Of a DNA stretch of 64,000 bases, positions 1-20,965 are shown one piece after another. This DNA comes from Terriglobia bacterium (GTDB lineage Bacteria; Acidobacteriota; Terriglobia; 20CM-2-55-15): assembly GCA_963664115.2 (NCBI GenBank), contig CAXWPJ010000012.1, forward strand, positions 160,001-224,000, written 5' to 3'. Positions within the stretch are counted from its first letter, which is position 1; each line of letters begins with the position of its first letter. A program made the position numbers and the translations under genes. The notes beneath the pieces were generated by a model. That model made no database searches. It saw nothing but the letters and a program-made list of their open reading frames with translations, and had not been told where the DNA came from.

Positions 1-1198
1 CCGAAACCACGGGGGAATGCAAGCAAGGGATGGACGTGGCCTACGACGGGACGTGGGGATATCACCCGCTGATGATCTCGCTGGCCAACACCGCCGAACC
101 GCTGTATCTGGTCAATCGTAGCGGCAACCGGCCGTCGCATGAAGGAGCCGCGGTCCGGTTCGACCAAGCCATCGCATTGTGCCGGCATGCGGGGTTTCGC
201 CAGATCCTGCTGCGCGGGGACACGGACTTCAGCCAGACCCGGCATCTGGACGGATGGGACGACCAGCAGGTGGGTTTCATATTCGGGATTGACGCGATGG
301 CGAACCTGAAGGCCCGGGCCGATGAACTGGAGCCGCGCCAGTGGAAGCGCCTGGAACGGCCCGCGAAATACGACGTGGCGACCGAACCGCGCCAACGTCC
401 CGACAACGTGAAGGAAGAGATCGTTCGGCAGCGCGGTTTCGACAATATCCGCTTGCAGGGTGAGGATGTGGCCGAGTTTCGGTATCGACCCGGAGCCTGC
501 GATCGGGACTACCGTGTCGTCGTGGTGCGGAAGAATCTGTCGGTGGCCAAAGGAGAGCAGGTGTTGTTTGACGACATCCGGTACTTCTTCTACATTACCA
601 ACCGTTCGGATCCGGCCGACCAGATTGTGATGCGTGCCAATCAACGGTGCAATCAGGAGAATCTCATTGAGCAGTTGAAGAACGGCGTTCAGGCGTTGCG
701 GATGCCGGTCGGAGATCAGACCAGCAACTGGGCCTACATGGTGATCGCGTCACTGGCCTGGACACTGAAAGCGTGGTTTGCATTGCTGCTTCCCGAAACC
801 GGACGTTGGGGCCAAAAATATCAGGCTGAGAAGCAAACCGTGCTGCGCATGGAGTTCAAAACCTTCTTGAACGCTTTCATGCTTGTGCCGTGCCAACTCG
901 TGCGCACCGGGCGGCGCATTCTGTTCCGGATCCTGGCCTGGAACCGGTGGTTGCCGGTCTTGTTCCGCGGGGTGGATGTGTTGCGTCAGCCTCTGCGATG
1001 TTGACCCGATCATGACTCTGAGCCCGGGCGATCGAGGTCCCGGTTTCTGTCAACCGTCCAACACCAGCGAGGCTGAACTGAAACAGATTCAACAGAAACT
1101 CGATACCTGGAACAGGCCATCCGGGAACGGGATTCTATGCCTCGAATTCTATCGGCGCGAACTGGGCCTCGGCGGACTGGTTATGCGCTTGTTTTGGG
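1..1198 (+). mobile_element. IS1380-family insertion sequence, 5' end outside the window
   Basis: IS1380-type transposase followed by ~190 nt non-coding, ending CGCTTGTTTTGGG directly against an IS1111 end fragment. Confidence 0.75.
30..1004 (+). CDS. IS1380-family DDE transposase (N-terminus truncated by window edge)
   Basis: Motifs GYHPL..SLANT.EPLYLVNRSGNRPSHE, LLRGDTDF, RCNQENLIEQLK. Confidence 0.88.
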   Translation: MDVAYDGTWGYHPLMISLANTAEPLYLVNRSGNRPSHEGAAVRFDQAIALCRHAGFRQILLRGDTDFSQTRHLDGWDDQQVGFIFGIDAMANLKARADELEPRQWKRLERPAKYDVATEPRQRPDNVKEEIVRQRGFDNIRLQGEDVAEFRYRPGACDRDYRVVVVRKNLSVAKGEQVLFDDIRYFFYITNRSDPADQIVMRANQRCNQENLIEQLKNGVQALRMPVGDQTSNWAYMVIASLAWTLKAWFALLLPETGRWGQKYQAEKQTVLRMEFKTFLNAFMLVPCQLVRTGRRILFRILAWNRWLPVLFRGVDVLRQPLRC

Positions 1199-1222
1199 TC
1201 TAGGGGCGTCCTTTCATACTGC
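1199..1222 (-). mobile_element. Terminal fragment of a second IS110/IS1111 copy, interrupted by IS1380
   Basis: 1198-1239 is identical to 9133-9174, including subterminal IR CCTTTCATA, GAT core and flank TTAACAGGACTTGA. Confidence 0.85.
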
Positions 1223-1243
1223 GATTTAACAGGACTTGAGAAT
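1223..1243 (+). repeat. Right half of recurring palindromic site (GAT-TTAACAGGACT-TGAGAAT)
   Basis: Matches right halves at 1910, 6365 and 9161; continuation TGAGAATCATTTTC shared with 6376-6389. Confidence 0.75.
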
Positions 1244-1258
1244 CATTTTCACCGTCGT

Positions 1259-1657
1259 TTAGGGCACCGGCACCCGTTCAACCGCCAAAGTAAGACGACC
1301 AACAGCACTGACGACTTCCACCGTGCTTCCTCTGGGCACGGGCCCTGTTGGGGCCGTCGCACGCCACAGCTCGCCGCGCACGCGGACGTAACCCTTTGGC
1401 GTGAGGTCGGTGGTGACGACTCCACGGAGGCCCACCATACGCTCAACTCCCGTCCGTGGATCTTCTTCGTATGACTGTCGGAGGAACGGATAGAGAGCAA
1501 GGTCTTTCACAACCCAGCAACCGAGCAGCGTGCCGGCGGCCCAGGCGGGCATTTCCACTCGACGCCACAGCAAAAGCAGCACGCCTACCAGCCCGAGCCA
1601 GCCCGGAATCTGAATGACGATGTATTTCAGAAACGTCCGAGTTGGCGGCCAGTACAT
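1259..1657 (-). CDS. Short NfeD-like membrane protein (TM segments + OB fold) ending in kinase-type tail ERVPVP
   Basis: Hydrophobic N-half; G..GVV..DL.P.GYVRVRGELWRA motif; 1262-1279 identical to kinase tail 9187-9204. Confidence 0.8.
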   Translation of the reverse strand: MYWPPTRTFLKYIVIQIPGWLGLVGVLLLLWRRVEMPAWAAGTLLGCWVVKDLALYPFLRQSYEEDPRTGVERMVGLRGVVTTDLTPKGYVRVRGELWRATAPTGPVPRGSTVEVVSAVGRLTLAVERVPVP

Positions 1658-1892
1658 GACGCCACTATCTCATAGGACGGCACTGAACCGACTCTTTCAA
1701 TCTGGCTTTGAAAATCTCGATAAAGAAACATGAAAGCAAGAGGTCGCGCGACGGCCTGCGGCCGCGACGATTCGTCCTCGGCAACGCCGAATGGTAGAGC
1801 TATTCACTTCCGCAGGATAGGTAAACCCTTGGCGACTTATCGTTAGTAATCCGGCGTTATTTCAGTTCCTAGGCACTTCTCCCCGAAGTTCA

Positions 1893-1920
1893 ACGTCCGA
1901 GAAGATGATTTGTCAGGACT
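1893..1920 (+). repeat. Intact recurring 11-6-11 palindromic site
   Basis: ACGTCCGAGAA-GATGAT-TTGTCAGGACT followed by TGA; arms are imperfect inverted repeats. Confidence 0.8.
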
Positions 1921-1932
1921 TGACCTCCAAAA

Positions 1933-2020
1933 TCAGGGAACTGGCACCCTCTCCTTCAGTTCTTCAAACCAATTCAGGACGATGTTGATTCCGGGGGCGG
2001 GCGGCCTCGCCAGTACCGGT
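1933..2020 (-). pseudogene. C-terminal remnant of a Ser/Thr kinase-beta-propeller gene
   Basis: Minus strand reads TGTGEAARPR (1-nt shift) INIVLNWFEELKERVPVP*. Confidence 0.8.
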
Positions 2021-2085
2021 CTTCCGTCTACCTGGAAATCCTGATTCGGACAAGGGCGGTTTGTCCGCGTCTTTCCATTCCAGTG

Positions 2086-3072
2086 TCAAAATACGGCGAT
2101 GGGGTTCAATGGTGAACCGGTTCCCCCGCGGAACGGGAGCGGTGCGGCCATCAGCAAAAACTCCCATCGATTTCGCTCGGCTGCTGCGTCGCCGAGCGCC
2201 TCCAGATCACAGTTGTCGAACATGTGGATGCCCAGATATAGCAGCGCAAAGTCGTGAACGGCTCCGGGCAGGTTCGACGGCGCAACATACGTTGGATGAT
2301 CGCTTCCCAATAACGCAACATCTCGCTCCTTCAACCACGGAATTACGGACGGGTGGAGACCCGCCGATCGGCCACCCTCGGCTCGGCCGCGAAGCCAAGG
2401 TCCTTCGGCCTCACGTCGAGCCCACACACCGGTACGAATGAACAGCGCGTCACCGGAGGAGACGCGCACGCCGGTCTGCTCTTCCCAGGCTTCCAGATCT
2501 TCCACGTAGATTGGAGTACCCGGCTCCAGATACGGAACGCCCTTGACCCTCGGAATGTCTATCAGGACGCCACGGGTCAGGATCCCGTTCTTGAGGTTGT
2601 GGATCGAGTTCTGCTCGTGTCCAGTTTCGAGGACGGTGTCCGCGTCAGGAGTGTACCCGTTGTAGAAAGTCCCGTTCTCGTTCACATGCGCCAGGGCGTC
2701 GAGGTGCGTGTGCGCGATGCCATGGTAACTGACCCCAAACCGATCTGCGCTGATCCGGAGCATCTCGTGTTCATACGGATTGGGATTGTCGATGGCCTGA
2801 ACGGTATCCGCATCACCAGCCAGGGAAACGGAAAATCCTTCTTCAACCAGGGCCACCGCCTCCAGCCGCTTCTCTGGCGTGATCAGGTTCAGGGCTCCGA
2901 TCTCATCGTCCACTCCCCAACGCCCCCAGTTCGACAACTCCGTCTTCCACTGTTCGTACTGGGCTGTGGTCACATCCCTGTCGCCCTCCTGAAGTGGTTC
3001 GAGGGCGGGTCGAGACAACGCGATAGTCGCGCTCATCGCTACTATGAAAAACCCGGCGAGCAATTTTTTCAT
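2086..3072 (-). CDS. Secreted cyclase / kynurenine-formamidase-like family protein
   Basis: Signal peptide MKKLLAGFF; SNWGRWG.DDEIGALNLITP; HTHLDALAH; GGTGSPLNPIA; GGAGG upstream of ATG 3072. Confidence 0.88.
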   Translation of the reverse strand: MKKLLAGFFIVAMSATIALSRPALEPLQEGDRDVTTAQYEQWKTELSNWGRWGVDDEIGALNLITPEKRLEAVALVEEGFSVSLAGDADTVQAIDNPNPYEHEMLRISADRFGVSYHGIAHTHLDALAHVNENGTFYNGYTPDADTVLETGHEQNSIHNLKNGILTRGVLIDIPRVKGVPYLEPGTPIYVEDLEAWEEQTGVRVSSGDALFIRTGVWARREAEGPWLRGRAEGGRSAGLHPSVIPWLKERDVALLGSDHPTYVAPSNLPGAVHDFALLYLGIHMFDNCDLEALGDAAAERNRWEFLLMAAPLPFRGGTGSPLNPIAVF

Positions 3073-3086
3073 GGATCCTCCGCGTT

Positions 3087-3137
3087 TTGGTCGGTGATTC
3101 GATATGGGCTGAGTTCTGTACCTGAACTGAGTGCCAC
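3087..3137 (-). pseudogene. N-terminal remnant of a Ser/Thr kinase gene
   Basis: GTG start reads VALSSGTELSPYRITDQ; 60-nt upstream region is colinear with that of the clear kinase stub at 14452. Confidence 0.65.
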
Positions 3138-3206
3138 AAAACACGCTGTTTGTTTTTTCGAAAATCTCGGTAAATTTAATCACAGGAGGGAATTGGGGAC
3201 AAAGAG

Positions 3207-3246
3207 AATCTCAAGTCCCCAAAAACGTTAGATTCTTATCGGAAGT
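3207..3246 (-). repeat. Recurring site variant, inverted, with 11-nt spacer
   Basis: Minus strand ACTTCCGATAA-GAATCTAACGT-TTTTGGGGACT-TGAGATT. Confidence 0.55.
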
Positions 3247-3558
3247 AACCCGGTGAGAGCAGCGCAGGACAAGTGGTGATGTGTGGCCGGGTTACTTTCG
3301 ATGAGGGCGTTTGAAGAAAGCTGCCCACAGGTCAGGCGTCTACGTAGTTTGACAGCGGTTTCGGGTATCGACAACGTGAAGACAGGCCAAGTGTAAACGA
3401 TATTGTAGGACACCGTGAAATGCCCTGTTTAGAGCAAGTGTCACATTGACGGTTAGGCGACAATACAGGACTTGGACAATCGGCGAGTTTTCATGCCGTC
3501 ATTCTGCTGCGTGCAGAGTCAACCTGACGTTGCCGTTTCAAAGGTCGTCGATAAGATG

Positions 3559-4362
3559 CTACCTGGCGCAGCGGAAGCCGATGTTATGGTGACCGGAGTC
3601 GAACTCACGCGAAAGATTCCGGCCGCGCTCGGTCGACCGGATCTGCCGCGCCGGGGTGTCCTGGCCGCCGCCGCGGGTTCCCCGCACCGGTCCCGGCTCG
3701 AGGCTCTCGCGGCCGTCCGAGGCGTCATAGGGGTAAGGCGCGTAGGCGCTGCTGACCCACTCCCAGACGTTGCCGGCCATGTCCAGGACGCCGTATGGGC
3801 TGGCGCCGTCCGGAAAGCGCCCCACCTGGGCGGTCTCCCTCCAGCCTCCGTCGAACTGCGCTCGCGTCCGGTCGGGAGCCTGACTGCCCCAGGGATACAT
3901 CCGGCCGTCCCTGCCGCGTGCGGCCTTCTCCCATTCCGCCTCCGTGGGAAGGCGCTTGTTGGCCCAGGCGCAGTAGTCTCGGGCCCCGGCCCATGAGACC
4001 TCCAGTACCGGATGGTCTTCGAAACCCGGCTCCACAACCCACGAGTTGCCGCTCCGATCGATGCGCGCATCGGAGTCGTCGTCCTCGTAATAGGTTTCCC
4101 GCCGAGGACCTACCGGTCCCACGGCTTCCAGAAACCTGGCGAACTGGGCCTTCGTTACGGGAGTCCGGTCGATCTCGAAAGTGGCCAGCTCGACAGTATG
4201 CGCGGGTCGCTCTTCGGCCGGACCGGTGTTCGTCCCCATGATGAAAGGCCCGGCCGGAATTGTGACCATTTCAGTCGTCGACTGGCTCTGGGCTTCGCAT
4301 AAGCAACCTGCGATTAGAACGATTGAAGATATCGCTCCAAGCGTATTGAGACTTCTGAACAT
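3559..4362 (-). CDS. Formylglycine-generating enzyme family (FGE-sulfatase/SUMF1 domain) secreted protein
   Basis: IPAGPFIMG, KRLPTEAEWEKAARG, DMAGNVWEW, IGFRCAR; alternative start 4404. Confidence 0.88.
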   Translation of the reverse strand: MFRSLNTLGAISSIVLIAGCLCEAQSQSTTEMVTIPAGPFIMGTNTGPAEERPAHTVELATFEIDRTPVTKAQFARFLEAVGPVGPRRETYYEDDDSDARIDRSGNSWVVEPGFEDHPVLEVSWAGARDYCAWANKRLPTEAEWEKAARGRDGRMYPWGSQAPDRTRAQFDGGWRETAQVGRFPDGASPYGVLDMAGNVWEWVSSAYAPYPYDASDGRESLEPGPVRGTRGGGQDTPARQIRSTERGRNLSREFDSGHHNIGFRCAR

Positions 4363-4881
4363 TGGAAACCTCTTGATTGGCTGGACTGGTTGATGCTGCC
4401 ACATGGCCCCGATTCAATGAGACTACAGGCAGGATTTCAGGTCAATCAAAGAATCACATGGAAGCATAGGCGACTTCACATTCTTGTGGAATTTCTACAG
4501 TCCGATTCAGGCTCACTCGGAGAAGGCTTGTGGGCTTAGTGAAAGGTGTTCGGACAAGCCAGTTCAGAAACCCTCTACGGGCAGGAGGCGCCGCAGCTCT
4601 TCGTCCAGACCGAATCCAGATCGACCGGGGCTATTGTTTTTCCTATGCCCTCTCGGTTTCAACCGGATAAAGTATGTGGCGATGATTTCGATCCGGTTTG
4701 GGCCGTTCTAGGGCCCGAACGGATTGCTTTCTACTCTTGGCCGACTATCGGAAACGGGCGAGACGCGCACGCCGCGGCTCGCGAGGCCAGAGTAGGGCTT
4801 TGGAGGGCCGCGTAGTGCCCGCGGCGGTTCGGGGCGAAGCCCCGTGTAGTTTATTAAGTTCGGCTCACGAGCGAGGTTTGC

Positions 4882-6087
4882 ATGAGAATCAAACGTTCCA
4901 TTCGGTGCGCTGCGGCGTTGCTGCTCGGCATTGTCGCGCTCAGCCACGCTCGGCAGCAACCGCCTATCGGCGTACCGGTACCGCCGTTGGGTGCGGGACC
5001 ATGGGTGTTCGATACGGGCGAGCAGCACAAGATCCGCGTCAGCGTCGTGACCAAGGGGCTCTCACATCCATGGGCCATCGCCTTCATGCCCGGTGACGAG
5101 ATGCTGATCACCGAGCGGGACGGTCGCCTGCGCGTCGTTCGAGCCGGAGTGCTCGACCCACAGGCCATCTCCGGCTTGCCCCAGGTCCGGACCGACGGCA
5201 ACGGGGGTCTCATGGATATTGCCCTCCATCCCCGGTTTGCCGAGAATCGCCTGGTCTACCTCACGTACACCAAACCGGTCAGAAGCGGCATGGGTGCTCC
5301 GGCGCTGGCGCGGGGCCGGCTCGAGGGCGACGAACTCGTCGATGTCCGAGACCTTCTCGTCACTGAGGCGCACGAGGGCAACTCGGGTCTCAACGGCCGC
5401 GTCGTCTTCGGAAGTGACGGCAAGGTCTACATGTCCACAGGCGGCAGGTCCCAAGACGACATTGAGAACCTCGCGCAAGATCCCATGAGCTTGCGCGGCA
5501 AGATCCTGCGCCTTAACGACGATGGCTCCGTACCGGCAGACAACCCGTTCGTGGGCCACGCGGGCTATCGGCCGGAAATTTACAGCCTGGGGCATCGAAA
5601 TACGCTGGGCCTCATCGTCCACCCCGAGACCGGGATGCTCTGGCAACACGAAAACGGCCCCCTCGGCGGCGACGAGATCAACATCATCTTGCCGGGGCGC
5701 GATTACGGATGGCCGCTTCTGAGCTTCGGACGCGATTATTCAGGCCCGCGCATTTCCGAACATCCGACCCGCGAGGGATTAGAGTCGCCGCTCGTCGTGT
5801 GGCTGCCCAGCATCGCGGTCGCCGGCATGGCCGTATACACCGGCGACCAGTTTCCGGCGTGGAGAGGCAACGTGTTCGTCGGTGCGATGCGCGAGGGCCG
5901 CATCCCGGGCACGGGCCACCTGCAGCGCATCGTGTTCAACGACAGGACAGAAGAGCTGCGACGCGAGTCGATGTTGAGGGAGCTCAGGCAACGCATCCGG
6001 GAAGTGCGCGAAGGGCCCGACGGGTTCCTGTACTTGCTCACGGACGAAGACGAAGGCGCGCTCCTGCGTATCGAGCCGGCCCCGTGA
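4882..6087 (+). CDS. PQQ-dependent glucose/sorbosone dehydrogenase family protein
   Basis: Signal peptide; GLSHPWAIAF, GKILRLNDDGS.P.DNPF, EIYSLGHRN, GGDEINII, RIREVREGPDG. Confidence 0.9.
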   Translation: MRIKRSIRCAAALLLGIVALSHARQQPPIGVPVPPLGAGPWVFDTGEQHKIRVSVVTKGLSHPWAIAFMPGDEMLITERDGRLRVVRAGVLDPQAISGLPQVRTDGNGGLMDIALHPRFAENRLVYLTYTKPVRSGMGAPALARGRLEGDELVDVRDLLVTEAHEGNSGLNGRVVFGSDGKVYMSTGGRSQDDIENLAQDPMSLRGKILRLNDDGSVPADNPFVGHAGYRPEIYSLGHRNTLGLIVHPETGMLWQHENGPLGGDEINIILPGRDYGWPLLSFGRDYSGPRISEHPTREGLESPLVVWLPSIAVAGMAVYTGDQFPAWRGNVFVGAMREGRIPGTGHLQRIVFNDRTEELRRESMLRELRQRIREVREGPDGFLYLLTDEDEGALLRIEPAP

Positions 6088-6288
6088 GCGTCCCGGACGG
6101 CCGTCTCACGGGAAGTGGGCGGGTTTGCCGTCACCCATCGTCCTTCGATCACACCCGTAAATAAAACTACATAAGGGACTTAGCGTCAATCTGCAAGGCA
6201 CATCCCTGTCACCCCCTAACCGGAATAGTGGCTTGTACTCAAGGACCCATTCACATTTGGGAAACCTGAAATGTTCCTGGAAACGATT

Positions 6289-6316
6289 ACTCCCGAAAAA
6301 CGCCGTTGTCGGAAGC
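6289..6316. repeat. 11-6-11 palindromic site variant
   Basis: ACTCCCGAAAA-ACGCCG-TTGTCGGAAGC; reverse complement of right arm GCTTCCGACAA resembles ACTTCCGACAA at 16445. Confidence 0.55.
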
Positions 6317-6340
6317 TGAGAAACCCCAGTAATTTGCCCA

Positions 6341-6382
6341 ATTCTCAAGTGACGCGAAGATGATTTCTCAGGACCTGAGAAT
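6341..6382 (+). repeat. Recurring site with extended arms (42 bp)
   Basis: ATTCTCA-AGTGACGCGAA-GATGAT-TTCTCAGGACC-TGAGAAT. Confidence 0.75.
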
Positions 6383-6388
6383 CATTTT

Positions 6389-6534
6389 CGACTGGCCAGA
6401 CACAAACTTAGAGCAGTTCATTGCCAGATGTTGCGGACACGTTCTTTAGCGTCGAGGGAAGCAGTCTTGCCAGCTTGATCTATCTGAATCCACACGCCCT
6501 CAGATCGGACCGGCGATGCTAAGTTGACAGTGCC
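6389..6534 (+). mobile_element. IS6-family 3' remnant (transposase tail + terminal IR)
   Basis: Reads RLARHKLRAVHCQMLRTRS, similar to the C-terminus of the IS6 transposase at 18704-19405; ends AAGTTGACAGTGCC. Confidence 0.7.
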
Positions 6535-6545
6535 TTCCTGACATC

Positions 6546-6980
6546 CTATGGCTGGCGCTGGGCAGCTACGAGTTCCAGGATGGCGATGGCGCCGCGAGCA
6601 GCGAGTTGAAGCGACTCGAGGTCCCCCGCTTCAACACCGTTGACAGCGATGTCGTTGGCTGCCTGGACAAGGATCGCGATCCCTCGGTCAGCATCGCCCA
6701 TGTCGTTGAGAATTCCATTTCCCTCCTGCGCGGCACATGGGTAGCCCGCACTGACGTCGAAATTCGACCCGTTCGGACCCTCGATGCAGTTCACCGCGTG
6801 GTGGAGATGCCTCATCGCACCCTCAACTGCCTCCTGGTCGGCCGACAAGCCTGCGTGCTGAATGGCCGTCGCGATCTGGCTCGCCGCCTTGCCCTGGTCT
6901 TGTTCTGCTGCCGCCATGGGCGCAAGGGCGACCATCACTACAACCATCATTATCACTATGTGTCTGACTGATTTAATCAT
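6546..6980 (-). CDS. Hypothetical secreted helical protein
   Basis: Signal peptide, GGAGG upstream, HLHHAVNCIEGPNG motif with a second Cys. Confidence 0.7.
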   Translation of the reverse strand: MIKSVRHIVIMMVVVMVALAPMAAAEQDQGKAASQIATAIQHAGLSADQEAVEGAMRHLHHAVNCIEGPNGSNFDVSAGYPCAAQEGNGILNDMGDADRGIAILVQAANDIAVNGVEAGDLESLQLAARGAIAILELVAAQRQP

Positions 6981-7268
6981 TTGAGGCCCTCCAGCCTGTG
7001 ATTGAAACGCCCCGGATAGAAAGAATAAGAGGCCCTTTCCTGCTAGAAATGGGGTGAGTCTGTGGCAATTCTTTCGCTCCAGCAAGGGAAATGCAAGGAA
7101 AATACGGTCCGCAGCACGAACTGAAGAACCAAGCATCGGTTGAGGTAACGAAAAGTGATGTCGATGGTGGTCTCCTCAGGGCTGGGAGGCGCCGCGCTGT
7201 GGCACCTCGTTGAGTGACCTAACCCACAAGAATTGGACCGAGAACAGTCCAATCACAAGGAGAGAGAA

Positions 7269-7556
7269 GTGAAGAAATTTGTGCTGCTCCATTACGGATT
7301 CGAGAAGCCCACCCCAGAGATCATGAAGGGATGGGAAACCTGGTTCGAGTCAATCGCCGACAGGACGGTTGATAACGGTGGTTTCAGCGGCGGGCGAGAG
7401 ATCTCCGCCTCTGGGACAAAGGACCTCCCATGGGGAATGGAGTCCATCACTGGCTACACGATTATCCAAGCCGAGAGCCTTGACGAGGCAGAGAAGATCG
7501 CTCAAGACAATCCCTATATCGCGAGCATCCGAGTCTACGAGGTCAGGGGGATGTAG
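7269..7556 (+). CDS. YciI/DGPF-like small protein
   Basis: KKFVLLHYGFE..., ITGYTIIQAESLDEAEKIA..NP....IRVYE; AGGAG upstream of GTG. Confidence 0.75.
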   Translation: MKKFVLLHYGFEKPTPEIMKGWETWFESIADRTVDNGGFSGGREISASGTKDLPWGMESITGYTIIQAESLDEAEKIAQDNPYIASIRVYEVRGM

Positions 7557-7595
7557 CGTGCCTGACTCACAAGGAGGCACCAACCCACTGGCGGG

Positions 7596-7619
7596 ATTCT
7601 CAACGTCCGAGAAGATGAT
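7596..7619 (+). repeat. Left half of recurring site, split by IS1111
   Basis: ATTCTCA-ACGTCCGAGAA-GATGAT; joined to 9161 onward it rebuilds a close copy of 1893-1990. Confidence 0.85.
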
Positions 7620-7799
7620 CTATGAAAGGGGATGTCAAGAGAAACAGCTCCCCGATGGCCGGCCAGACGGACACTTTTGTCGTGACAGCCAGCCCCTCTA
7701 CCGTTATGTGAAGCCCTGGTTCCGGCAATCCGCAGCGAAATCGTACATCTTTAAGACGGTCGATTCAGAAACTGAACAGCATATGGGACGGCATGTGCC

Positions 7800-7985
7800 G
7801 ACCATGGATCTATCTGAGCCTCGAAGGCTATCGCTGTTTCAGGTCGTGCGAGGGGGGATAGAGATTTAAAAGTGTCCTCTGGACGTATCCAGGGACCACA
7901 TCTTGTGCAGATCCTCACCCTCGATCCTCAGTTGTTCCGACTCCGTCTAACGACTCAGTACGGCTCTACCGGTCACGGATCGAAA
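7800..7985 (-). ncRNA. Putative bridge/seek RNA of the IS1111 element (boundaries approximate)
   Basis: Hairpin flanked by target-matching segments (7863-7906) and a hairpin flanked by donor-junction-matching segments (7807-7837). Confidence 0.7.
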
Positions 7986-7989
7986 CGGC

Positions 7990-9054
7990 TTATGTTGTCA
8001 TCCAGCTCAGTTTCTTTGGATCGAACGATTCTCCTTTCTTCCAAAGCGTCAGCACCAGTGCGGCGATCTTACGGGCCAGAGTGACCCGCGCCATTTCCTC
8101 CCGCATCCCACGCATCTGGAGACTCTCCAGATAAATCCGATACGGCTCGCTTTGTTTTCCCGATGCCGCGGCTGAGAAGAACACCGACTTCAATCGCCGG
8201 TTGCAGTTCGCATTCAATCCGCGTGTGGCCACCGGTTTCCTCCGTCGCACCACACGTCCACTCTGCATCTCATACTCCGCGCTCATGTGGGTCACCACAC
8301 CCAGGCCACTGTAGCTCCAGAACTGCGGTGTCGTGCGGAATCGGTACGGCGTGTCCACGATGGCGACGATCTGTGCCGCCCGAACCGGTCCCAGTTGTGG
8401 AATGGTCTCGAGCAGTTTCACCGCCTCATGGTGCCGGCCCTCCACTCGCACCGCTTTTCTGGATTGTTTCCGCAGCAACTGGACCTGGTCCAGTTCCGCA
8501 TACAACCATCGGGCGCGCTGCCTCATCCCCGGCTCGGTCAGCTTCTCCAACCACTGTTCGCGCTGACTCGGCCGATAGACTCCGTCCTTCGGTGTCGGGA
8601 TCCCCCGTCCCCGGTATATCGCTTTGATCCGCGACATCACCCGTTGCGTGTCCAACTGGAACGTGTCATAGGCCTGCACCAGTTGCTTCAATTCTCGCGT
8701 CGCTTCATGGCCGTGATACACCGAGCGCAACAGTCCCACCCGCAACAGCTCGGCCAGCTTCCGCGCATCCGGCTTATCCCCCTTCGACCCTTCTTGCATC
8801 CACTTGTTCTGTCGCGGATCGCACACCACCACCTCGCTCACCCACGGCCGGATCACTTCCGATAACCAGCCCGCTTGCGTGGTCTCCTCCAACCCCACGT
8901 GCATCGGCCCACTCAATCCCTCCAGCAGCCGTGTGATACTCCCCGCCTCGGTTTCCACGATCGTTTCAAACACCAGTTTGCCGCTCCCGTCTCTCACCGC
9001 AACCACCGTCGTTGCCTGGTGCACATCCATACCCATATACTTGTCTTGTTTCAT
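7990..9054 (-). CDS. IS110-family DEDD recombinase/transposase
   Basis: YMGMDVH, VGLEE, KGDKPDARKLA, IPQLGP..A, SYSGL. Confidence 0.92.
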   Translation of the reverse strand: MKQDKYMGMDVHQATTVVAVRDGSGKLVFETIVETEAGSITRLLEGLSGPMHVGLEETTQAGWLSEVIRPWVSEVVVCDPRQNKWMQEGSKGDKPDARKLAELLRVGLLRSVYHGHEATRELKQLVQAYDTFQLDTQRVMSRIKAIYRGRGIPTPKDGVYRPSQREQWLEKLTEPGMRQRARWLYAELDQVQLLRKQSRKAVRVEGRHHEAVKLLETIPQLGPVRAAQIVAIVDTPYRFRTTPQFWSYSGLGVVTHMSAEYEMQSGRVVRRRKPVATRGLNANCNRRLKSVFFSAAASGKQSEPYRIYLESLQMRGMREEMARVTLARKIAALVLTLWKKGESFDPKKLSWMTT

Positions 9055-9160
9055 CTCGAACGCTCCTTTTCTGGGATCAACGCTGTATACGTTGATCAGG
9101 TTGTTGAGTGAGTCTTCTCTCAACAACCCCCAGTCTAGGGGCGTCCTTTCATACTGCGAT

Positions 9161-9174
9161 TTAACAGGACTTGA
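9161..9174 (+). repeat. Right half of recurring site, split by IS1111
   Basis: TTAACAGGACT-TGA, then a kinase tail at the same spacing as 1910-1935. Confidence 0.85.
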
Positions 9175-9183
9175 CCTCGTAAA

Positions 9184-9270
9184 TCAGGGCACCGGCACCC
9201 GTTCTTTCAGTTCTTCAAACCAGTTGAGGACGATGTTGATTCTTGGGCGCTCGGTTTCTTCCAAGTCGGC
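9184..9270 (-). pseudogene. C-terminal remnant of a Ser/Thr kinase-beta-propeller gene
   Basis: Minus strand reads ADLEETERPRINIVLNWFEELKERVPVP*. Confidence 0.8.
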
Positions 9271-9471
9271 CCGCTACTCGGGAGTTGGCACGACGATTCA
9301 GTAAACATTACGGCGTTGGTGGGAAGTAATAGGCTCGATGTCTTGAACGTCGACTACGCCACAATGAATCGCTTGCAGTTGCCGGACTAACGGGCGAGAC
9401 TAAAAACACACGAGCGTCGGCAGACAACCTGGCGTTCTTGCCTGCTTAACAAATCATCGGAGGTAAGTATC

Positions 9472-9954
9472 ATGCGCGGAGCAATGCTGTTTGCGGCCGG
9501 ACTCTTCGTTGGGTTGGCCGTAAGTGTGGGGATGGCGCAAAACGCCAACAGTAATGTCGTGATGATGAATCACGTGGGCATCAACGTGCCGGACATCCCG
9601 GATGCGATGACATACTACACCGAGACAATGGGCTACCGGGAAGCGTTCCGTCTCAACGACGACAACGGGCAGCCGAGGCTGGTCTACATGCACATCAGCG
9701 AAAACACGTTCCTTGAGCTCGGGCAGGCGAACGCGCAACGGCCTGCAGGTTTCAGCCATTATGGGCTGCACGTCGAGAACGTGGCAGACGCCGTCGCACG
9801 GTTCAGAAGGGACGGCGCAACTGTCAGTGATACCCGCACCAGCGATACCAAAGCGATCCTCGCCAACATCACTGATCCGTACATGGGCCGCATCGAATTG
9901 GCCGAACTCCCTCCGGAGTCCCTGCATTACAAGGCCATTCAGAGCTGGAATTGA
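9472..9954 (+). CDS. Secreted VOC/glyoxalase family protein
   Basis: Signal peptide; NHVGINV.D, FLEL, HYGLHVENV, DPYMGRIEL. Confidence 0.85.
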   Translation: MRGAMLFAAGLFVGLAVSVGMAQNANSNVVMMNHVGINVPDIPDAMTYYTETMGYREAFRLNDDNGQPRLVYMHISENTFLELGQANAQRPAGFSHYGLHVENVADAVARFRRDGATVSDTRTSDTKAILANITDPYMGRIELAELPPESLHYKAIQSWN

Positions 9955-9968
9955 GAAGGAGCATAGAC

Positions 9969-11081
9969 ATGAAAGTTTCAGGTTTCGTGAGGTTCTCGTC
10001 GATGGTGGTGATCGCTGCCGTCGGGATTGCCCTGCTGGCAACGAGTGTTCAAACACAGCAGCGGGCAGGCACGGTTGAGACGGACAGAGTTCAACCCGTC
10101 AACAGCGGCGCCAATCCTTATCGCGTCTTCCGGGACTGGGCACAGCTCAATTTAGAGGCGAGACCGTGGGGCGGCTCCAACGGCGTCGCCATCGACCCCG
10201 ATGGCCGGTCCGTGTGGGCCGTCGACCGATGCTCACCCGGGACGACTCCGGGCTGTGTCGACAGCCCAGGGAACCCGGTCCACCATTTCGATGAGTCTGG
10301 AAATGAGATCCTAAGCTTTGGCAGCGGGATGTTCGTCTGGCCGCACGGCATCCATGTCGATCGAGACGGAAATGTGTGGGTTACCGATGCACGAGCCGAG
10401 AGCAACAAGGGAAGCGTCGTGGTCAAGTTCAGTCCCGAAGGCAGAGTCCTCATGACGCTTGGGACGCCGGGTGTGAGCGGAAACCCTCCCGAAGCTCTGA
10501 CTGACCCGACCAGCGTCGTGACCGACCCGGGAAATGGTGACGTGTACGTGGCGGAGAGCCATACGAACGTAACCGATCCCAATCTGGTCGGCCGCATCTC
10601 CGTCTTCGACAGAGACGGGAACTTCCTCAGAGTGATCGGCAAGACCGGAACGGGGCCGGGAGAGTTCCGGACGCCGCATGCGCTCGCGTTCGATTCCCAG
10701 GGCCGGCTCATCGTCGCCGATCGCCACAACCATCGCATCCAGATCCTGACGAAGGACGGTAGGTTCATCCGTGAATACGCCGACTTCGGGCGCGTCAGCG
10801 GGCTGGCCATCGACAGCAACGACGTCATTTACGCGGCCGACTCCGAGTCGAACGAAAGGGTTCACCCAGGCTGGAGGAGGGGAATCCGGATCGGCAGCCT
10901 CCGAGACGGGGAGGTGACCATGTTCATTCCGGCACACCCGACGGATTCTCCGGACGGTGCGATGGGCGAAGGCATCGCGATCGACCCCGAGGGCAATATC
11001 TACACGGCGGAAGCACGATTGAGCGACACGCCGGAAGCACGAGTGAGGGGCGTGACGAAGTACGTCAAGAACGAGAATTGA
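9969..11081 (+). CDS. Secreted NHL-repeat beta-propeller (peptidylglycine amidating lyase-like)
   Basis: WPHGIHVDRDGNVWVTD, GEFRTPHALAFDSQGRLIVADR.NHRIQI. Confidence 0.85.
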   Translation: MKVSGFVRFSSMVVIAAVGIALLATSVQTQQRAGTVETDRVQPVNSGANPYRVFRDWAQLNLEARPWGGSNGVAIDPDGRSVWAVDRCSPGTTPGCVDSPGNPVHHFDESGNEILSFGSGMFVWPHGIHVDRDGNVWVTDARAESNKGSVVVKFSPEGRVLMTLGTPGVSGNPPEALTDPTSVVTDPGNGDVYVAESHTNVTDPNLVGRISVFDRDGNFLRVIGKTGTGPGEFRTPHALAFDSQGRLIVADRHNHRIQILTKDGRFIREYADFGRVSGLAIDSNDVIYAADSESNERVHPGWRRGIRIGSLRDGEVTMFIPAHPTDSPDGAMGEGIAIDPEGNIYTAEARLSDTPEARVRGVTKYVKNEN

Positions 11082-11227
11082 AGCGCGTCAATCATCGCGC
11101 TTCGCTGATCTGAACCGGAGAAGCCCCGCTTCGATCTGCCTGCACAAGGAGTTGCGGTCAATCAGAAGGTCCAGTCCCTGAGATACCGCGGACACGAAAA
11201 AGTGGAATGCCCTAACATGGAGCCCTT

Positions 11228-11251
11228 CAGGCGCGATCCACTTTGGAGCAT
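11228..11251 (-). pseudogene. Very short kinase-like N-terminal stub (MLQSGSRL)
   Basis: Kinase-type start; upstream region homologous to 4463-4530 (shared AGCATAGGCGACT). Confidence 0.4.
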
Positions 11252-11344
11252 AGGCGACTATACGTCCGTGTGGATTGCCTCATCTTCGAATCTGGATACT
11301 TGAGAGTAGTTTAGTAGGCTGTGGGTAGCGAGACTTGATGATCG

Positions 11345-11445
11345 CTACGGGACCGGCACCCGTTCCTTCAGTTCTTCAAACCAGTTCAGGACGATGTTGA
11401 TTTGGGGTCATGCGACCTCGCCGCTATCGGCCTGGTCGGCGGGCC
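11345..11445 (-). pseudogene. C-terminal remnant of a Ser/Thr kinase-beta-propeller gene
   Basis: Minus strand reads PADQADSGEVA*PQINIVLNWFEELKERVPVP*; GACTTGA lies just downstream. Confidence 0.8.
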
Positions 11446-11567
11446 GAAACGGGTTGAGACTCGACACCGCCTCGGTTCACCGCCTCGAATCTACACTGGG
11501 GATGACTCGACGGACTCGGCCTACTTCGCCACAGATCCCAGGAGGGCGACGTCACGGGGCGCACTCA

Positions 11568-11887
11568 AGTTAAATGACCCCCGGCAAAGCCGGGGGCTTA
11601 GTTTTGTTAGCCCCTCAAAAGGGCCGGTCAAGAGCCGCCTGAAGGCGGCGAATTCGCCCACGGTATGTTCAACTGCTCCACAATTCTTCGTCCGTCGGTA
11701 CTTCGGTACGGACACCGCGTGACACTAGCAATCCCATGTCGTGTGCAATAGGCTTTGGCAGTCTTTCGTTACGTCCTCCTTGTTCGAAAGTTGGCGCTTC
11801 CAAGGAGGAGTTCCTTATTTACTGCCGCTTTCGGTCAAACCTCTGCGAGTCGCCCCGGCAGAGCCGGGGCTTTACCTGTTGGAATTA
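11568..11887 (-). mobile_element. Internally deleted IS200/IS605-family element (tnpA pseudogene)
   Basis: Terminal hairpins CCCCGGCAAAGCCGGGG and GCCCCGGCAGAGCCGGGGC; decayed TnpA start KDCQSLLHTTWDC*CHAVSVPKYRR. Confidence 0.75.
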
Positions 11888-11890
11888 GCC

Positions 11891-12760
11891 CTAGCTTCCA
11901 CTGCCATCCGTTGTGCTGCCACCACCAAGGTCACTCACAAAGGACTGGAGCATGGTGGTGAACTCCATGGGGAATATGAACTTGGTGGCGGCACCTTCTC
12001 CGAGTCGCTTCAGCGTCTCAAAGTATTGCAGGCTCATAGTTCGGGCGTCTGCGGTCCGGGCAACCGTGTTGATCTGAGTGAGGGCGTTGCTGAACCCTTC
12101 CGCGTTGAGAATAGCGGCCTGGCGAGTCCCCTCAGCACGGAGCATGGCGGCCTGCCGCTCACCCTCAGCTTTAAGGATGGCCGCCTGCTTTTCCCCCTCG
12201 GCTCGGTTTATTTGGGCCTGGCGTTGTCCTTCCGACTCTGTGATATCGGCCGTCTTGATGGCCTCCGCCGACTTCTCCCTCTCCATGGCGTTCTTCACCC
12301 CGTCGGGTGGGTCGATCTCGTTGATTGCGGCCCCGCGGACCTTGACCCCCCAGCGGCCCGTATTTTCGTCCAGCGCAATCTGGAGCTGACTTTGTATCTG
12401 CTCCCGTTCGCTTAGCGCCGCGGCCAGAGTTATATTGCCAATGATGGACCTGAGCTCTGCCACGGCCAGGTTCCGCACCGCCAGGCGGTGGTTCGCCACC
12501 TCGAGGACCGATTTCTCCGCTTGATCCGGTAGGACGCGGTAATAGAGTACAAAGTCCATGTCCACAACCACGTTGTCCTTGGTGATGTACTGCTGCGTTG
12601 GGACTCGCTCCGGCACCTCCCGGGTATCTACGACCCTACCGGAATGGAAGAAAGGTATGAGGAAATGAAACCCGGCGCCCTTGAGACTCCCCGTGTACTT
12701 TCCCAAGGAAAACACCACCATCTTCTCGTACTGTTTGACGATCACTATGCCTGTTGCCAT
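11891..12760 (-). CDS. SPFH/band-7 (slipin/QmcA-like) protein
   Basis: ITKDNVVV..D, LRSIIG..TL...LSERE, WGVKV, AEGEKQAAIL repeats. Confidence 0.9.
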   Translation of the reverse strand: MATGIVIVKQYEKMVVFSLGKYTGSLKGAGFHFLIPFFHSGRVVDTREVPERVPTQQYITKDNVVVDMDFVLYYRVLPDQAEKSVLEVANHRLAVRNLAVAELRSIIGNITLAAALSEREQIQSQLQIALDENTGRWGVKVRGAAINEIDPPDGVKNAMEREKSAEAIKTADITESEGQRQAQINRAEGEKQAAILKAEGERQAAMLRAEGTRQAAILNAEGFSNALTQINTVARTADARTMSLQYFETLKRLGEGAATKFIFPMEFTTMLQSFVSDLGGGSTTDGSGS

Positions 12761-12855
12761 GGTAGCCTCCTGAATGTCTTGTGCACTGGTAACCTAGTCA
12801 CTCCACTAGTCTTATAGTTACGCCGTACGCCTCTCCATACGGGTTCAACCCGAGA

Positions 12856-14235
12856 CTAGTGAGCTGATTCCAGAGGTTGATCACTCTGCTCTAGCCGGAT
12901 CACGGTGAGAATGATGCCGTTCACCTTCACCACCTCTACCTTTTCTCCAGAGCCTATCTGGTCGCTGCCCTGGGCCACTGCGGTCCAAAGTTGGTTTTCC
13001 AAGCGCACCGTACCCCGGGGTGCAAGATCAGTGGCAACCTCCGCCATTTGGCCCACCAAGCCAGCCACACCTGGATCGAGCGGCCCTCTTCGCGACCGTA
13101 CGATGGTGGTGATCACCCATCCTCCACCACCACTCAGCACCAGCGCCGTGGACACTAGGAACCACGGGCTCACACCTATACGCGGCATTGTGGGTGATGG
13201 CGCACCCGTATGGAAGAAAAGGAAAACCCCTCCCAAGATGAAGCTAACGATGGCCCCAACACCCAGGATACCAAAGCCCGCCACGTAGACCTCCAGCGCC
13301 GCTAGGACCACTGCCATGAGGATGAGCACCACACCCGCCCAGTTGACCGGCAGGTTCCCCAGGGTGACGTAGGAGAGAATCAAGAGGATGAGTCCAGTTA
13401 CTCCCGGCACGATCAAACCTGGATTCAGTAACTCCAAGAAAATGCCCAGACTGCCGAGAGACAGGAGCAAATAGGAAACGTTGGGATCGGAGAGGAAGCG
13501 CAGGAATCGCTCGACCAGGCTCATCTCCATGGTCTGCACCGCCACCCCTTGCGTTTCCAGTACCAGGCGTGGGCCACCAGGGGGCCGTACCGTGGCCTCC
13601 CGGCCGTGGAGCTGGGCCAGGAGGTCATCCAGATCACCAGCCAGAAAATCCACCATGCCGGACTCCACCGCCTCTTCGCCGGTGAAAGACAGTGCCTGAA
13701 GCACGGTGGCCTCCAGCTTCTCCTGATTCCGACCCCGTAGCTCGGCGATGGTCCTCATCTCGGCCGCGGCGTCGTTGGTGACCTTGGACCTGAGGGTCTC
13801 TGGAAGCTCCTCACCGTCACCGCTAACCGGGCTGGCAGCACCGACGTTGGTCCCTGGCGCCATCACAGCGAAAGTGGCGGCAGCAGTGATGAAGGTACCC
13901 GCCGAGGCAGCCCTCGCCCCACGAGGTGCCACGTACACCACCGACGGCAGCTCTGCGTTGAGCAAGTGTTGGGTAATCTTCCGCGTAGAGTCCAGAAGAC
14001 CACCAGGGGTATCCAAGTGAACTATGATCAGGCTGGCACCCTCGGCCTCGGCCCGCTCCACACCCCGGGCAATGAACCCCTCAGTAACGGGGCTGATGAT
14101 GCCATCCACTTCCAGGAGTAGGACGTGGCGCTGCTGCGCGTGGCCAAGATTCAACAATCCTCCGGCCATGGCCACAGCCGACAGCAACCCCACCAGCAGG
14201 TGAGGCTTACCCCTGATCCTTGCTCCACTCAGCAT
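12856..14235 (-). CDS. nfeD: Long NfeD membrane-bound serine protease (ClpP-like + TM + OB)
   Basis: LDTPGGLLDS, AASAGTFI, MAPGTNVGAASPV; adjacent to the SPFH gene. Confidence 0.9.
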   Translation of the reverse strand: MLSGARIRGKPHLLVGLLSAVAMAGGLLNLGHAQQRHVLLLEVDGIISPVTEGFIARGVERAEAEGASLIIVHLDTPGGLLDSTRKITQHLLNAELPSVVYVAPRGARAASAGTFITAAATFAVMAPGTNVGAASPVSGDGEELPETLRSKVTNDAAAEMRTIAELRGRNQEKLEATVLQALSFTGEEAVESGMVDFLAGDLDDLLAQLHGREATVRPPGGPRLVLETQGVAVQTMEMSLVERFLRFLSDPNVSYLLLSLGSLGIFLELLNPGLIVPGVTGLILLILSYVTLGNLPVNWAGVVLILMAVVLAALEVYVAGFGILGVGAIVSFILGGVFLFFHTGAPSPTMPRIGVSPWFLVSTALVLSGGGGWVITTIVRSRRGPLDPGVAGLVGQMAEVATDLAPRGTVRLENQLWTAVAQGSDQIGSGEKVEVVKVNGIILTVIRLEQSDQPLESAH

Positions 14236-14371
14236 GTTCCACGAATCCTGATCCTAGTAGCATCCCTCAACTCCGCCCCAGGCAATGCTCAATCTTGTGA
14301 AGCTCGTTTGAGTCGTTAGCGGCTGAGCGTTTACGACTGCTGGCCTTTGAGAGCTTTGAGTTTTTCCAGGG

Positions 14372-14452
14372 TGCGCGCCACACTTCACCCATTCCACCCT
14401 TACCTAAAAGCGTTGAGATCTCGTAATGACCGAGTTTGGTGCCAGATTCCAT
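14372..14452 (-). pseudogene. N-terminal remnant of a Ser/Thr kinase gene
   Basis: MESGTKLGHYEISTLLGKGGMGEVWRA (glycine-rich loop), then abrupt loss of similarity. Confidence 0.88.
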
Positions 14453-14527
14453 GTTCAAAGTGTGTCGCTGAAAAAACCGAGTAAATCTCGGTAAAAGATA
14501 CTAGAGGAGTGAGTTAGGCGCTATCAA

Positions 14528-14562
14528 ATTCTCAAGTCCCTGCAAATGACCTTGGCGGACAG
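14528..14562 (-). repeat. Recurring site, inverted orientation
   Basis: Minus strand CTGTCCGCCAA-GGTCAT-TTGCAGGGACT-TGAGAAT. Confidence 0.65.
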
Positions 14563-14885
14563 TCAGATAGCCGAGTCTTTCATCCAAATCCGTAAGGATC
14601 TCAATGGAACACAACTGGACCTGGCAGGAGTTGACTGTTCAAAACGAAGCAAACGAAGGTGACGAAGGGAGAGATCTGAGAGAATGAACTAGGAAAGGTG
14701 CAGAGGAAGAAATCAGTGGTCATCAGTCAGGAATTATCAGTCCGAAGGTGAGAAATCGTGTCGGCCGGATTTCTCTAAACCCATAACTATTAACTCTTAA
14801 CATTCCTTACCGCACCTGTTCTTTTAAGATCACAAGTGTCCCTGCCGCTGCAGGACCGCAACCCGTGCGGAACGGAAGTTCACGA

Positions 14886-19875: not shown

Positions 19876-20889
19876 CAGTCCAGCGTTCGGGCTCCTCGAT
19901 TCGATTTGCCGACCGTAATGGGCGAATCTGCCGGGAGAGCACAGGCACAACACAGAAGAAGCTCGCCCAAGCAATCCTCGACAAGACGGACCAGTTGCGG
20001 CCACTTGGATGTTAAGAAGGTTTCTAAAATGTTTTATGAACCTGCACCCAGTATTGGGGCACCTACGGGAACATCTCCGCATGAAGGGCCTCTCCATGAT
20101 CGAAGTTTCATCGGCAATGCCCTGAAAGACATCATGCGATTTCTGAATACCCGGATCGAGCGAGACGAACTGAGCCCGGCGACGAGAAACCGTCATCTCG
20201 TCATGCTACGAGCCTTGTTCAATCGAGCAATCAAGTGGGGGCTGTTGGGAACCAATCCAACGGCGGGAATTGGACGATTGAGAGAAACGGGAGCACGTAC
20301 ACGGTTTCTCGATCAGGACGAGATCAAGGTGTTGTTGGAAGCCGCAAACGATCGATTCCATCCCATCCTGATAACAGCCCTGCACACGGGCATGAGACGT
20401 GGAGAAATTCTCCGACTTCAGTGGCCCGACGTAGACCTCAAAAATCGGACGATTACGATTCAGGAATCGAAGAGCGGAAAGAAACGCATGATCCCAATCG
20501 ACGGCACACTGTGCACAACACTACTGGCGCTCCCTTCCCGCTTTCAGAAGGGCTACGTCTTCCCTTCCCCGCGCAAGGAAAACGCTCCGTACACCGATAT
20601 CAACCATACGTTTCGACGGATCGCCGACAAGGCCAATATTGAAAATGTGCGCTTCCACGACCTGCGCCATACGTTTGCCAGTCATCTGGTCATGAATGGT
20701 GTGGACATTAGAACCGTTCAGGAATTGCTGGGTCATGCCAACGTAACAATGACGATGCGCTACTCTCACCTCTCGCCTGTCCATCGGACACGGGCCGTAC
20801 AAATCCTCGATACAGCCCTCCGAACTGACACAAAAACTGACACAGTGGAAAATCAGACGCAGGCGGGTTCCGCTAACTCATTGAAATAA
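19847..20889 (+). pseudogene. Tyrosine integrase, frameshifted N-terminus, intact catalytic domain (open frame from ATG 20134)
   Basis: TGMRRGE, HDLRHTFAS, LLGH...MTMRYSH; N-terminal IRFADRNGRICRESTGTTQKKLAQAIL lies in another frame. Confidence 0.8.
20823..20844 (+). repeat. Tandem 10-mer, candidate integrase arm-type sites
   Basis: AACTGACACA at 20823 and 20835, ~50 nt from the tRNA 3' end. Confidence 0.5.
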
Positions 20890-20892
20890 CAA

Positions 20893-20965
20893 TGGGACCG
20901 ACCGGACTTGAACCGATGACTTCCTGCGTGTGAAGCAGGCGCTCTTCCAACTGAGCTACGATCCC
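20893..20965 (-). tRNA. tRNA-Val (anticodon CAC)
   Basis: GGGATCGTAGCTCAGTTGGAAGAGCG-CCTGC-TTCACAC-GCAGG-AAGTC-ATCGG-TTCAAGT-CCGGT-CGGTCCCA cloverleaf. Confidence 0.95.

Follow-up and report, generated by a model that had tools for sequence, protein, structure and literature searches.

Integrons are made up of tandem, co-oriented modules of small genes and a repeated palindromic site that is targeted by IS110/IS1111-type insertion sequences (IS). Similarly, the repetitive extragenic palindromes (REP/REPIN) that go with REP-associated tyrosine transposases (RAYT) represent a short palindrome of high copy number, sometimes occurring as an inverted doublet about 25 bp apart, which is a target of IS110-type elements. 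Here, an array of gene modules located between the ends of serine/threonine kinase genes was studied in a 64,000-nucleotide stretch of DNA from a Terriglobia bacterium (contig CAXWPJ010000012.1, positions 160,001 to 224,000; assembly GCA_963664115.2), further referred to as the window. The genome concerned (G000; 4.89 Mb, 12 contigs, 97% complete) was compared with those of four congeneric species (G001-G004) and of a neighbouring genus (G007), among 41 genomes. Kinase-junction repeats are clustered and co-oriented, the modules between them occur beside different neighbours, and breakpoints fall in the kinase tail, in a 34-bp site or in the kinase promoter. The system is real, large and apparently undescribed, and likely one of repeat-anchored gene exchange.

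Several other described systems come close. In Neisseria, NIME/dRS3 arrays contain hundreds of short palindromic repeats, which are proposed substrates for exchange with incoming DNA and phage recombinase targets, and minimal mobile elements are small gene sets swapped between conserved flanks (PMC1797815). The dRS3 arrays hold short non-coding spacers, whereas whole genes are found here between paralogous signalling-gene ends; minimal mobile elements occupy syntenic single loci, whereas modules move here between many loci (PMC1797815). Alternative small gene sets beside the same conserved flank, as in minimal mobile elements, are present at two core edges common to G000 and G002, where the same site, or site plus head, is followed by different cargo. 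In contrast, the flanks are multi-copy repeats here, both being shared in 3 of 93 units, with no single-copy genes on both sides. In the type VI secretion system immunity gene arrays of Vibrio, and in Rhs and MafB, one conserved part of a gene serves as the anchor, the opposite end is joined illegitimately, and remnants accumulate in co-oriented arrays (PMC5361080, PMC1797815). Such orphan arrays hold genes of one functional class, for toxin tips or immunity, at a few fixed loci, whereas unrelated metabolic and membrane genes occur here in 34 clusters, with both gene ends and a 34-bp site serving as arms. Finally, the pdif (xrs) sites of Acinetobacter plasmids have two arms around a 6-bp centre, and inverted pairs with different centres flank accessory genes (bioRxiv 10.1101/2024.04.09.588662). 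Unlike arms around a 6-bp centre and inverted pairs with different centres are present here too, but the sites are chromosomal, number about 170, have arms that are not dif-like apart from 8/11 on one side, and show crossovers that are not confined to the centre. The array fails as an integron, as a set of pdif modules and as a REP/RAYT system on the features that define these. Literature searches aimed at a system of this kind, most subscription journals and supplements lying outside them, returned no description.

Kinase ends and their arrangement

The minus strand of the window contains three kinase tail stubs with the peptide INIVLNWFEELKERVPVP before the stop codon (1933-1989, 9184-9240, and 11345-11401), ending at the positions given in the sequence-only reading (1933, 9184 and 11345). 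The short copy that it had placed at 1259 is ERVPVP plus stop, the in-frame C-terminus of a short NfeD open reading frame (ORF; 1259-1657, minus strand). Chance was excluded for the tails: the DNA tail pattern occurred in 14 of the 41 genomes (115, 41, 102, 23 and 57 copies in G000-G004, 4-20 copies in five genomes of two other genera, and 1-2 in four more), and the reversed pattern in none. The proposed heads fared unequally. That at 14452 is a true kinase head of about 27 codons with its promoter (14372-14531, minus strand), and that at 3137 has a kinase-type promoter, the head itself being degenerate (3090-3242, minus strand; local score 60). MLQSGSRL at 11251 is no kinase start; the DNA there looks like a non-coding motif that precedes kinase ATG codons by about 50 bp, and its best match covers 13 bp with a score of 26, below the maximum of 29 reached at random, making the region (11238-11263, minus strand) a possible remnant that is not significant by itself. 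The "head-type region" at 4467 consists of a kinase-type promoter region (4416-4503, minus strand; score 86) that forms the junction of two modules and leads, instead of to a head, straight to the ATG codon of an FGE-sulfatase-domain gene. The upstream motif claimed to stand alone near 1712 was recovered as a remnant of kinase upstream (post-promoter) DNA (1709-1727, minus strand), with 18 of 19 bases matching and a score above that of all 200 random 80-mers.

Full-length members of the family are Pkinase plus PD40 proteins of about 900 aa; the proposed family of kinases with a TolB/PD40 propeller was recovered for these two domains, the TolB-propeller match staying below the NCBIfam cut-off. 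G000 contains 144 tails and 138 promoter/head elements, promoter DNA included; two peptide patterns gave 109 and 139 tail matches, and coding heads number 48. These elements group in 34 clusters of together 543 kb, or 11% of the genome. Among 132 tails scored, 118 have an open frame of less than 100 aa upstream and four have one of 800 aa or more, being full-length kinases. Retention of the kinase ends, loss of the bodies and the presence of unrelated cargo in between, as read from the window, were borne out genome-wide. Stub lengths are spread, from mostly 30 to 110 bp for tails and from 30 to over 270 bp for heads.

A head was followed by a tail on the same strand in 63 cases, compared with a mean of 33 upon strand shuffling (maximum 47 in 1000). 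Upon order shuffling within runs, the excess of same-strand alternation was modest (63 versus 53.8, p = 0.016), and tail-after-tail runs were frequent (45). Co-orientation is strong and head-tail pairing is loose. In partial support of the pairing proposed earlier, heads and tails occur in a ratio of about 1:1 and in common orientation, and modules travel with a stub. The strict shell of head, cargo and tail was not supported, the cleanest mobile units extending from one site to the next; a repeated junction (tail - site - promoter - head) is a better description of the array. Many full-length kinases are kept in G007, some of them in tandem, which presumably reflects the ancestral state. On one metagenome contig (1-963), a kinase head continues in frame into a long ORF for an unrelated secreted protein, possibly a head-cargo fusion.

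The 34-bp two-armed site

Downstream of the tails, a 34-bp palindromic element is found, TCAAGTCCTGANAA - 6 bp - TTNNCGGACNTTGA (consensus arms GA[G/T/C]AA-N6-TT[C/G][T/G]C), of which a weight matrix retrieved 172 copies in G000 and none in the reversed genome. Type A (138 copies) has the spacer ATCATC, and 74 of its copies come after a recognised tail; type B (26 copies) has the spacer ACGAC[A/C], is inverted, and faces a head or promoter in 21 cases. Within each class the spacer is nearly invariant, more so than parts of the arms. In G000, 146 of the 162 arm pairs consist of a proximal (P) arm, 6 bp and a distal (D) arm, and eight sites have a 3-bp spacer. Type-A sites are commoner on the G-rich, leading-like strand of G000 (88 to 50). 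The full site pattern occurs in 6 of the 41 genomes (123 copies in G000, 10, 82 and 34 in G001-G003, and one each in G007 and G017) and not in G004, which has a variant; tail stubs are also present in G004, G007, G013, G017 and G021 at loci devoid of a full type-A site. All 12 metagenome contig matches carry the site, seven of them with a stub, and a search of viral contigs for it gave no matches.

The sites of the window were additional to the sequence-only reading. They comprise an intact type-A site (1890-1923, minus strand; 53 bits with the weight matrix), a type-A site with a degenerate D arm (6345-6378, minus strand), a type-A site whose spacer is interrupted by an IS110/IS1111-type element (7596-9174, minus strand; site halves 7596-7630 and 9158-9174, element about 7631-9157, transposase 7990-9126), a half site of type A that retains the P arm and is interrupted at the spacer by the end of an IS110 element (1225-1239, minus strand), and an inverted type-B site immediately upstream of the promoter of the true head (14532-14565, plus strand; a weak copy of 18.5 bits). 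In total, two IS110-type elements and one IS30-type element insert into the site, and eight of eight left ends of the IS110 type of the window follow a P arm. The second IS110-type element, found at G000:C5:49338-47874 and in some ten further places, enters the P arm at its inner end, in type-A as well as type-B sites. The non-coding end downstream of the IS110 transposase in the window (7631-7989) is long and has sub-terminal inverted repeats, as in the IS1111 type. A guide-RNA match of this non-coding end to the site was rejected, the matches of 7 and 6 bases to its two strands not exceeding those of shuffles (0.14 and 0.51). Furthermore, the left end of the IS110 element carries an IS1380-family insertion, at an identical position, in two places or more (window 1180-1240; G000:C9:937988), resulting in an IS in an IS in a site.

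With integrons, the array shares tandem co-oriented modules, a repeated palindrome and its targeting by IS110/IS1111 elements. In contrast, there is no linked IntI, the 34-bp site has no RYYYAAC/GTTRRRY (AAC/GTT) core and no covariation, and the modules often have their own promoter and lie in either orientation. Indeed, the sole TIGR02249 match above the cut-off (G000:C9:714608-715549) is about 190 kb away from the nearest site cluster on that contig, and a search of window positions 1-22000 against Rfam retrieved only a tRNA; the earlier statement that the array is not an integron agrees with this. A classical integron is present in the same genome (G000:C9:708000-716000), in which several small genes upstream have ends resembling those of cassettes with attC; it is separate from the kinase-end arrays. 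The site also differs from REP/REPIN-RAYT palindromes, being confined to arrays, tied to kinase ends, devoid of covariation and not flanking RAYT genes: none of ten Y1/RAYT loci examined in the congeners carried a site. One RAYT-like gene of G000, behind a tRNA-like remnant, has a variant site about 260 bp ahead of it. There (G000:C10:489900-493300), two near-identical RAYT-like genes flank a gene pair predicted, from reading of the sequence, to be of the abortive-infection type. Identity of the site with dif was rejected as well. The dif site of G000 (G000:C2:108119-108145) occurs in single copy at the GC-skew switch, is conserved in five of five relatives searched, and has ATAA-N6-TTAT arms that are not matched. 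Empty-target or circle forms were limited to three D-D pairs in G000, one of them a misread P-D site, and one doubtful P-P pair in G002. With regard to a composite transposon or mobile insertion cassette, B and A sites do form inverted ends, with no transposase between them and with module ends that vary.

A possible, though doubtful, role of the palindrome is that of an operator through which a dimeric protein would regulate the kinase genes, so that cargo would join a common regulon; this concerns the function of the site and is compatible with exchange in the repeats. Such a role is suggested by the position of 26 of 28 type-B sites directly before a kinase-type promoter, by 79 of 138 promoter elements with a site or half site just upstream, by the FGE gene at a kinase start position, and by the lack of hairpin covariation (pair 12-23 gave 57 Watson-Crick pairs versus 58 after shuffling). 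It is at odds with the 101 of 139 type-A sites that have no detected kinase-type promoter behind them, with a spacer that is more constant than parts of the arms, and with the absence of any regulator gene identified. The folding energy of the site showed no strand preference.

Module sharing, breakpoints and mode of exchange

The cargo of the window recurs in G001-G004 with 86-98% DNA identity, at unrelated positions and beside other neighbours. For example, the module of the PF04199 'putative cyclase' (2086-3071, minus strand) occurs with its tail in G001, G002 and G004. Its joint to the tail is kept in four genomes, with identity fading inside the tail and different DNA after the stop codon in each genome; at its 5' end, G004 has a different head variant and G001 no head. 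Similarly, the VOC gene of the VOC/glyoxalase plus NHL cargo (9472-11081, plus strand) is found with its tail at G000:C11, in G001 and in G002; the tail is kept in three genomes, not in G004, and in G002 the gene is part of a complete unit of site B, head, VOC, tail and site A. For the FGE and GSDH modules, identity breaks in the promoter-upstream motif. Within G000, the module of the short NfeD gene (1223-1923) has a second copy of 99.3% identity (G000:C2:317264-317964), the 701 bp running from site to site, and a further module of 1.3 kb is present in three copies. A gene read from its sequence as coding for an extracytoplasmic function (ECF)-like sigma factor is found as cargo with a kinase tail in a locus of G002 (L044:7846-9399) and in G000 (G000:C12:17073-18703), with 97.7% identity.

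In a targeted sample of about 976 kb of congener DNA, chosen around sites and shared cargo (684 kb of G002, the rest of G001, G003 and G004) and compared with G000, 120 of the 370 ends of 193 low-copy segments in common were located at most 40 bp from a tail, site or head, features that occupy 4.4% of the fetched DNA. The low-copy duplications within G000 have 123 ends, 42 of which coincide with such features, although these make up 1.3% of the genome. For segments bounded by features, the median identity to G002 and G001 was 93.8% (up to 98%), a median raised by filtering of the module set at 85% identity or more; syntenic non-array blocks have 80-87% (G002) and 74-86% (G001). Among 244 type-A junctions, 22 pairs have the upstream side alone in common, 33 the downstream side alone, and six both, all six being duplications within G000. 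At the left core flank of the array, G001, G002 and G004 have no array but a different block, which in G000 is located on another contig, indicating that the array also marks a rearrangement point. A full kinase opposite cargo at the same flanks, the comparison proposed in the sequence-only reading, was found for only one of the three both-flank matches; it is a paralogous case in G007, with IS elements forming part of the flanks.

The mosaics are extremely improbable as products of misassembly at paralogous kinase repeats. Logan contigs do break at the repeats, no listed piece spanning the whole array, and long near-identical duplications occur at contig ends of G000. Yet contigs from four studies bridge several of the cargo-stub joints with 0-5 differences (e.g., 1232-1876, 2583-3941, and 12865-14405), the same joints recur in assemblies of other species, and the metagenome matches carry the sites and stubs mentioned above. 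The long duplications, several of them at contig ends or arrays (G000:C2:1-12000 versus C2:155000-167000; C5:1-11221 versus the end of C9; C6 versus C11 blocks), are either real segmental duplications or assembly overlaps.

A quite unlikely explanation is ordinary decay, whereby tandem kinase arrays shrank by deletions and were filled, at neutral hotspots, with IS elements and with DNA from ordinary horizontal transfer; gene conversion would merely keep the repeats alike, and these would carry no cargo. Arrays full of IS elements, the 118 tails outside any long frame, the variable stub lengths and the loose pairing speak for it. It does not account for the same cargo-plus-stub joint in four species beside different neighbours, for 99.3% duplicates that start and stop at the site, or for the breakpoint excess at the repeats, which is roughly 7-fold with the congeners and 27-fold within G000.

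A site-directed cassette system would represent a second kind of explanation. An enzyme encoded elsewhere, either a recombinase or a nickase (possibly XerC/D acting on relaxed sites, or an IS110 or IS30 enzyme resident in the genome), would bind the two unlike arms and initiate exchange while the kinase ends ride along. Sites of different spacer class would then not pair with each other, as in the Acinetobacter pdif modules. Considered unlikely, this fits with the unlike arms around a 6-bp spacer, the two spacer classes with shared arms in opposite orientation, the site-to-site duplicates, unrelated DNA up to the first base of the site, a D arm that equals the XerC-side arm of the dif of G000 in 8 of 11 bases when the sequences are compared, and the IS110-type and IS30-type insertions, comparable to those of IS1111 at attC and REP sites (PMC11187229). 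However, the position of the crossovers is not as expected. Indeed, linkage between variable positions is gone within about 8-10 bp on either side, without a step at the spacer (219 sites); the informative 99.3% site-to-site duplicates show differences within arms that should have moved along in a spacer crossover; and left breakpoints extend over about 80 bp, with 27 of 244 within 9 bp of the site edge. In type-A junctions, divergence begins in the tail core, at arm positions 9-12, or past the D arm. This crossover evidence against spacer exchange is indirect, as later gene conversion could blur the signal. Moreover, the sites with a 3-bp spacer, the inner ATAA/TTAT motif that is mostly absent, and the tail stubs without a site are difficult to reconcile with a site-directed enzyme.

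No linked or site-tracking recombinase was found. Near isolated sites, no recombinase gene stood out among the ORFs, read by eye. A tyrosine integrase gene between two inverted B sites (G000:C5:52189-53154) was rejected as candidate, as it was not found in G002 and G003 with their 82 and 34 sites; six identical integrases of 306 aa are IS91-linked; IntI has its own distant cassette array; and the Y1/RAYT loci examined had no site. The first locus (G000:C5:51831-53538) contains a gene for a 321-aa tyrosine recombinase between the two inverted type-B sites and two divergent kinase heads, with relatives in 10 of the 41 genomes. A wider version, which is rather doubtful, is a new class of chromosome-wide cassette system with a site of two incompatible spacer types, domesticated from kinase junctions, and a dedicated unlinked enzyme, comprising about 170 sites in 34 clusters over 11% of the genome and acting across species; it would be the equivalent of a superintegron without IntI or attC.

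Scattered crossovers, the lack of hairpin covariation and the lack of a linked recombinase indicate a preference for short-homology exchange over both a site-specific system and decay. Somewhat more probably than not, homologous recombination in the short kinase-junction repeats moved and copied the modules and exchanged them among loci and among related species. As a first step, these repeats may have arisen from the intergenic regions that joined the kinase genes of ancestral tandem arrays, of which G007 keeps largely intact examples. Secondly, illegitimate joining on one side, within a kinase gene, may have captured cargo, leaving stubs of every length. Thirdly, captured cargo would travel by crossovers in the flanking repeats. 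The palindrome, a putative protein-binding site, would be the best-conserved part of the arms and may stimulate exchange, not being a single crossover point. Some cargo, such as the FGE gene, may use the kinase promoter. Incoming DNA was probably delivered by transformation or with IS-rich mobile DNA; comEC is present in the four congeners, and dprA in four of five genomes, not being found in G002.

Several observations weigh against exchange by short homology. Of the 138 type-A sites, 64 are without a recognised tail, and several junctions begin exactly at the first base of the site; together with the near-invariant spacer, these suit a site-directed enzyme. The arms, of 60-100 bp and about 85-90% identity, are shorter than is usual in RecA-type exchange. 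Furthermore, comEC was not found in the 97% complete G000, same-flank replacement occurred once in 93 units, the four studies show a nearly identical arrangement, pointing to slow shuffling or closely related samples, and the identity filter mentioned above favours the module set. No exchange was seen directly.

If short-homology exchange applies, an expanded signalling gene family would have provided plug-in sockets, promoters supplied, for unrelated accessory genes, with about a tenth of G000 organised as such arrays and a pool shared by congeneric species. Cassette finders that use IntI/attC or a dif consensus would miss these arrays, and annotation would consider them pseudogene debris. 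With the site and stub sequences, the accessory genes pooled by these uncultured bacteria can be mined directly, and the arrays offer a test of the older proposal for Neisseria dRS3 that short palindromic repeats promote gene exchange. A dedicated enzyme, if present, would be a new recombination tool.

Other features of the window

The window starts with an IS1380-family element inside the end of an IS110-family element (1-1200, plus strand), with a match to NF033539 of 200 bits that is above the cut-off. Pfam confirmed the cargo identities of the sequence-only reading, namely the PF04199 'putative cyclase', FGE-sulfatase, GSDH, glyoxalase/VOC, NHL, Band_7 and NfeD. The FGE-sulfatase-domain gene (3559-4404, minus strand) is followed beyond the promoter region by the PQQ-type dehydrogenase gene (GSDH; 4882-6087, plus strand), whose module is 94-96% identical to those of G001, G002 and G004. 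The next module (6379-7595), 97% identical to that of G002, contains a gene without Pfam match (6546-7136, minus strand) and a YCII gene (7233-7556, plus strand). The tail stub at 11345 has no type-A site and is followed by an IS200-type remnant (11566-11888), matching loci of G001 that carry Y1_Tnp. The last module holds the SPFH (Band_7) and full NfeD genes (11891-14235, minus strand), 89% identical to G004, where they lie in a different array.

A variant of the module at 6356-7084, with 12-20 differences, is present in several sequencing runs, including three metatranscriptome runs; it ends at an intact site A and has another neighbour. Contigs from metatranscriptomes match parts of the FGE gene as well as the module at 6356-7015; as RNA libraries may contain DNA, this does not represent evidence of expression. 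Of the 20 runs holding the stretch, three are labelled as sponge metagenomes. Further to the right, an apparently 5'-truncated phage-type integrase gene (19906-20965) adjoins tRNA-Val(cac), with IS6-type and helix-turn-helix genes beside it, and likely forms the right border of the variable region.

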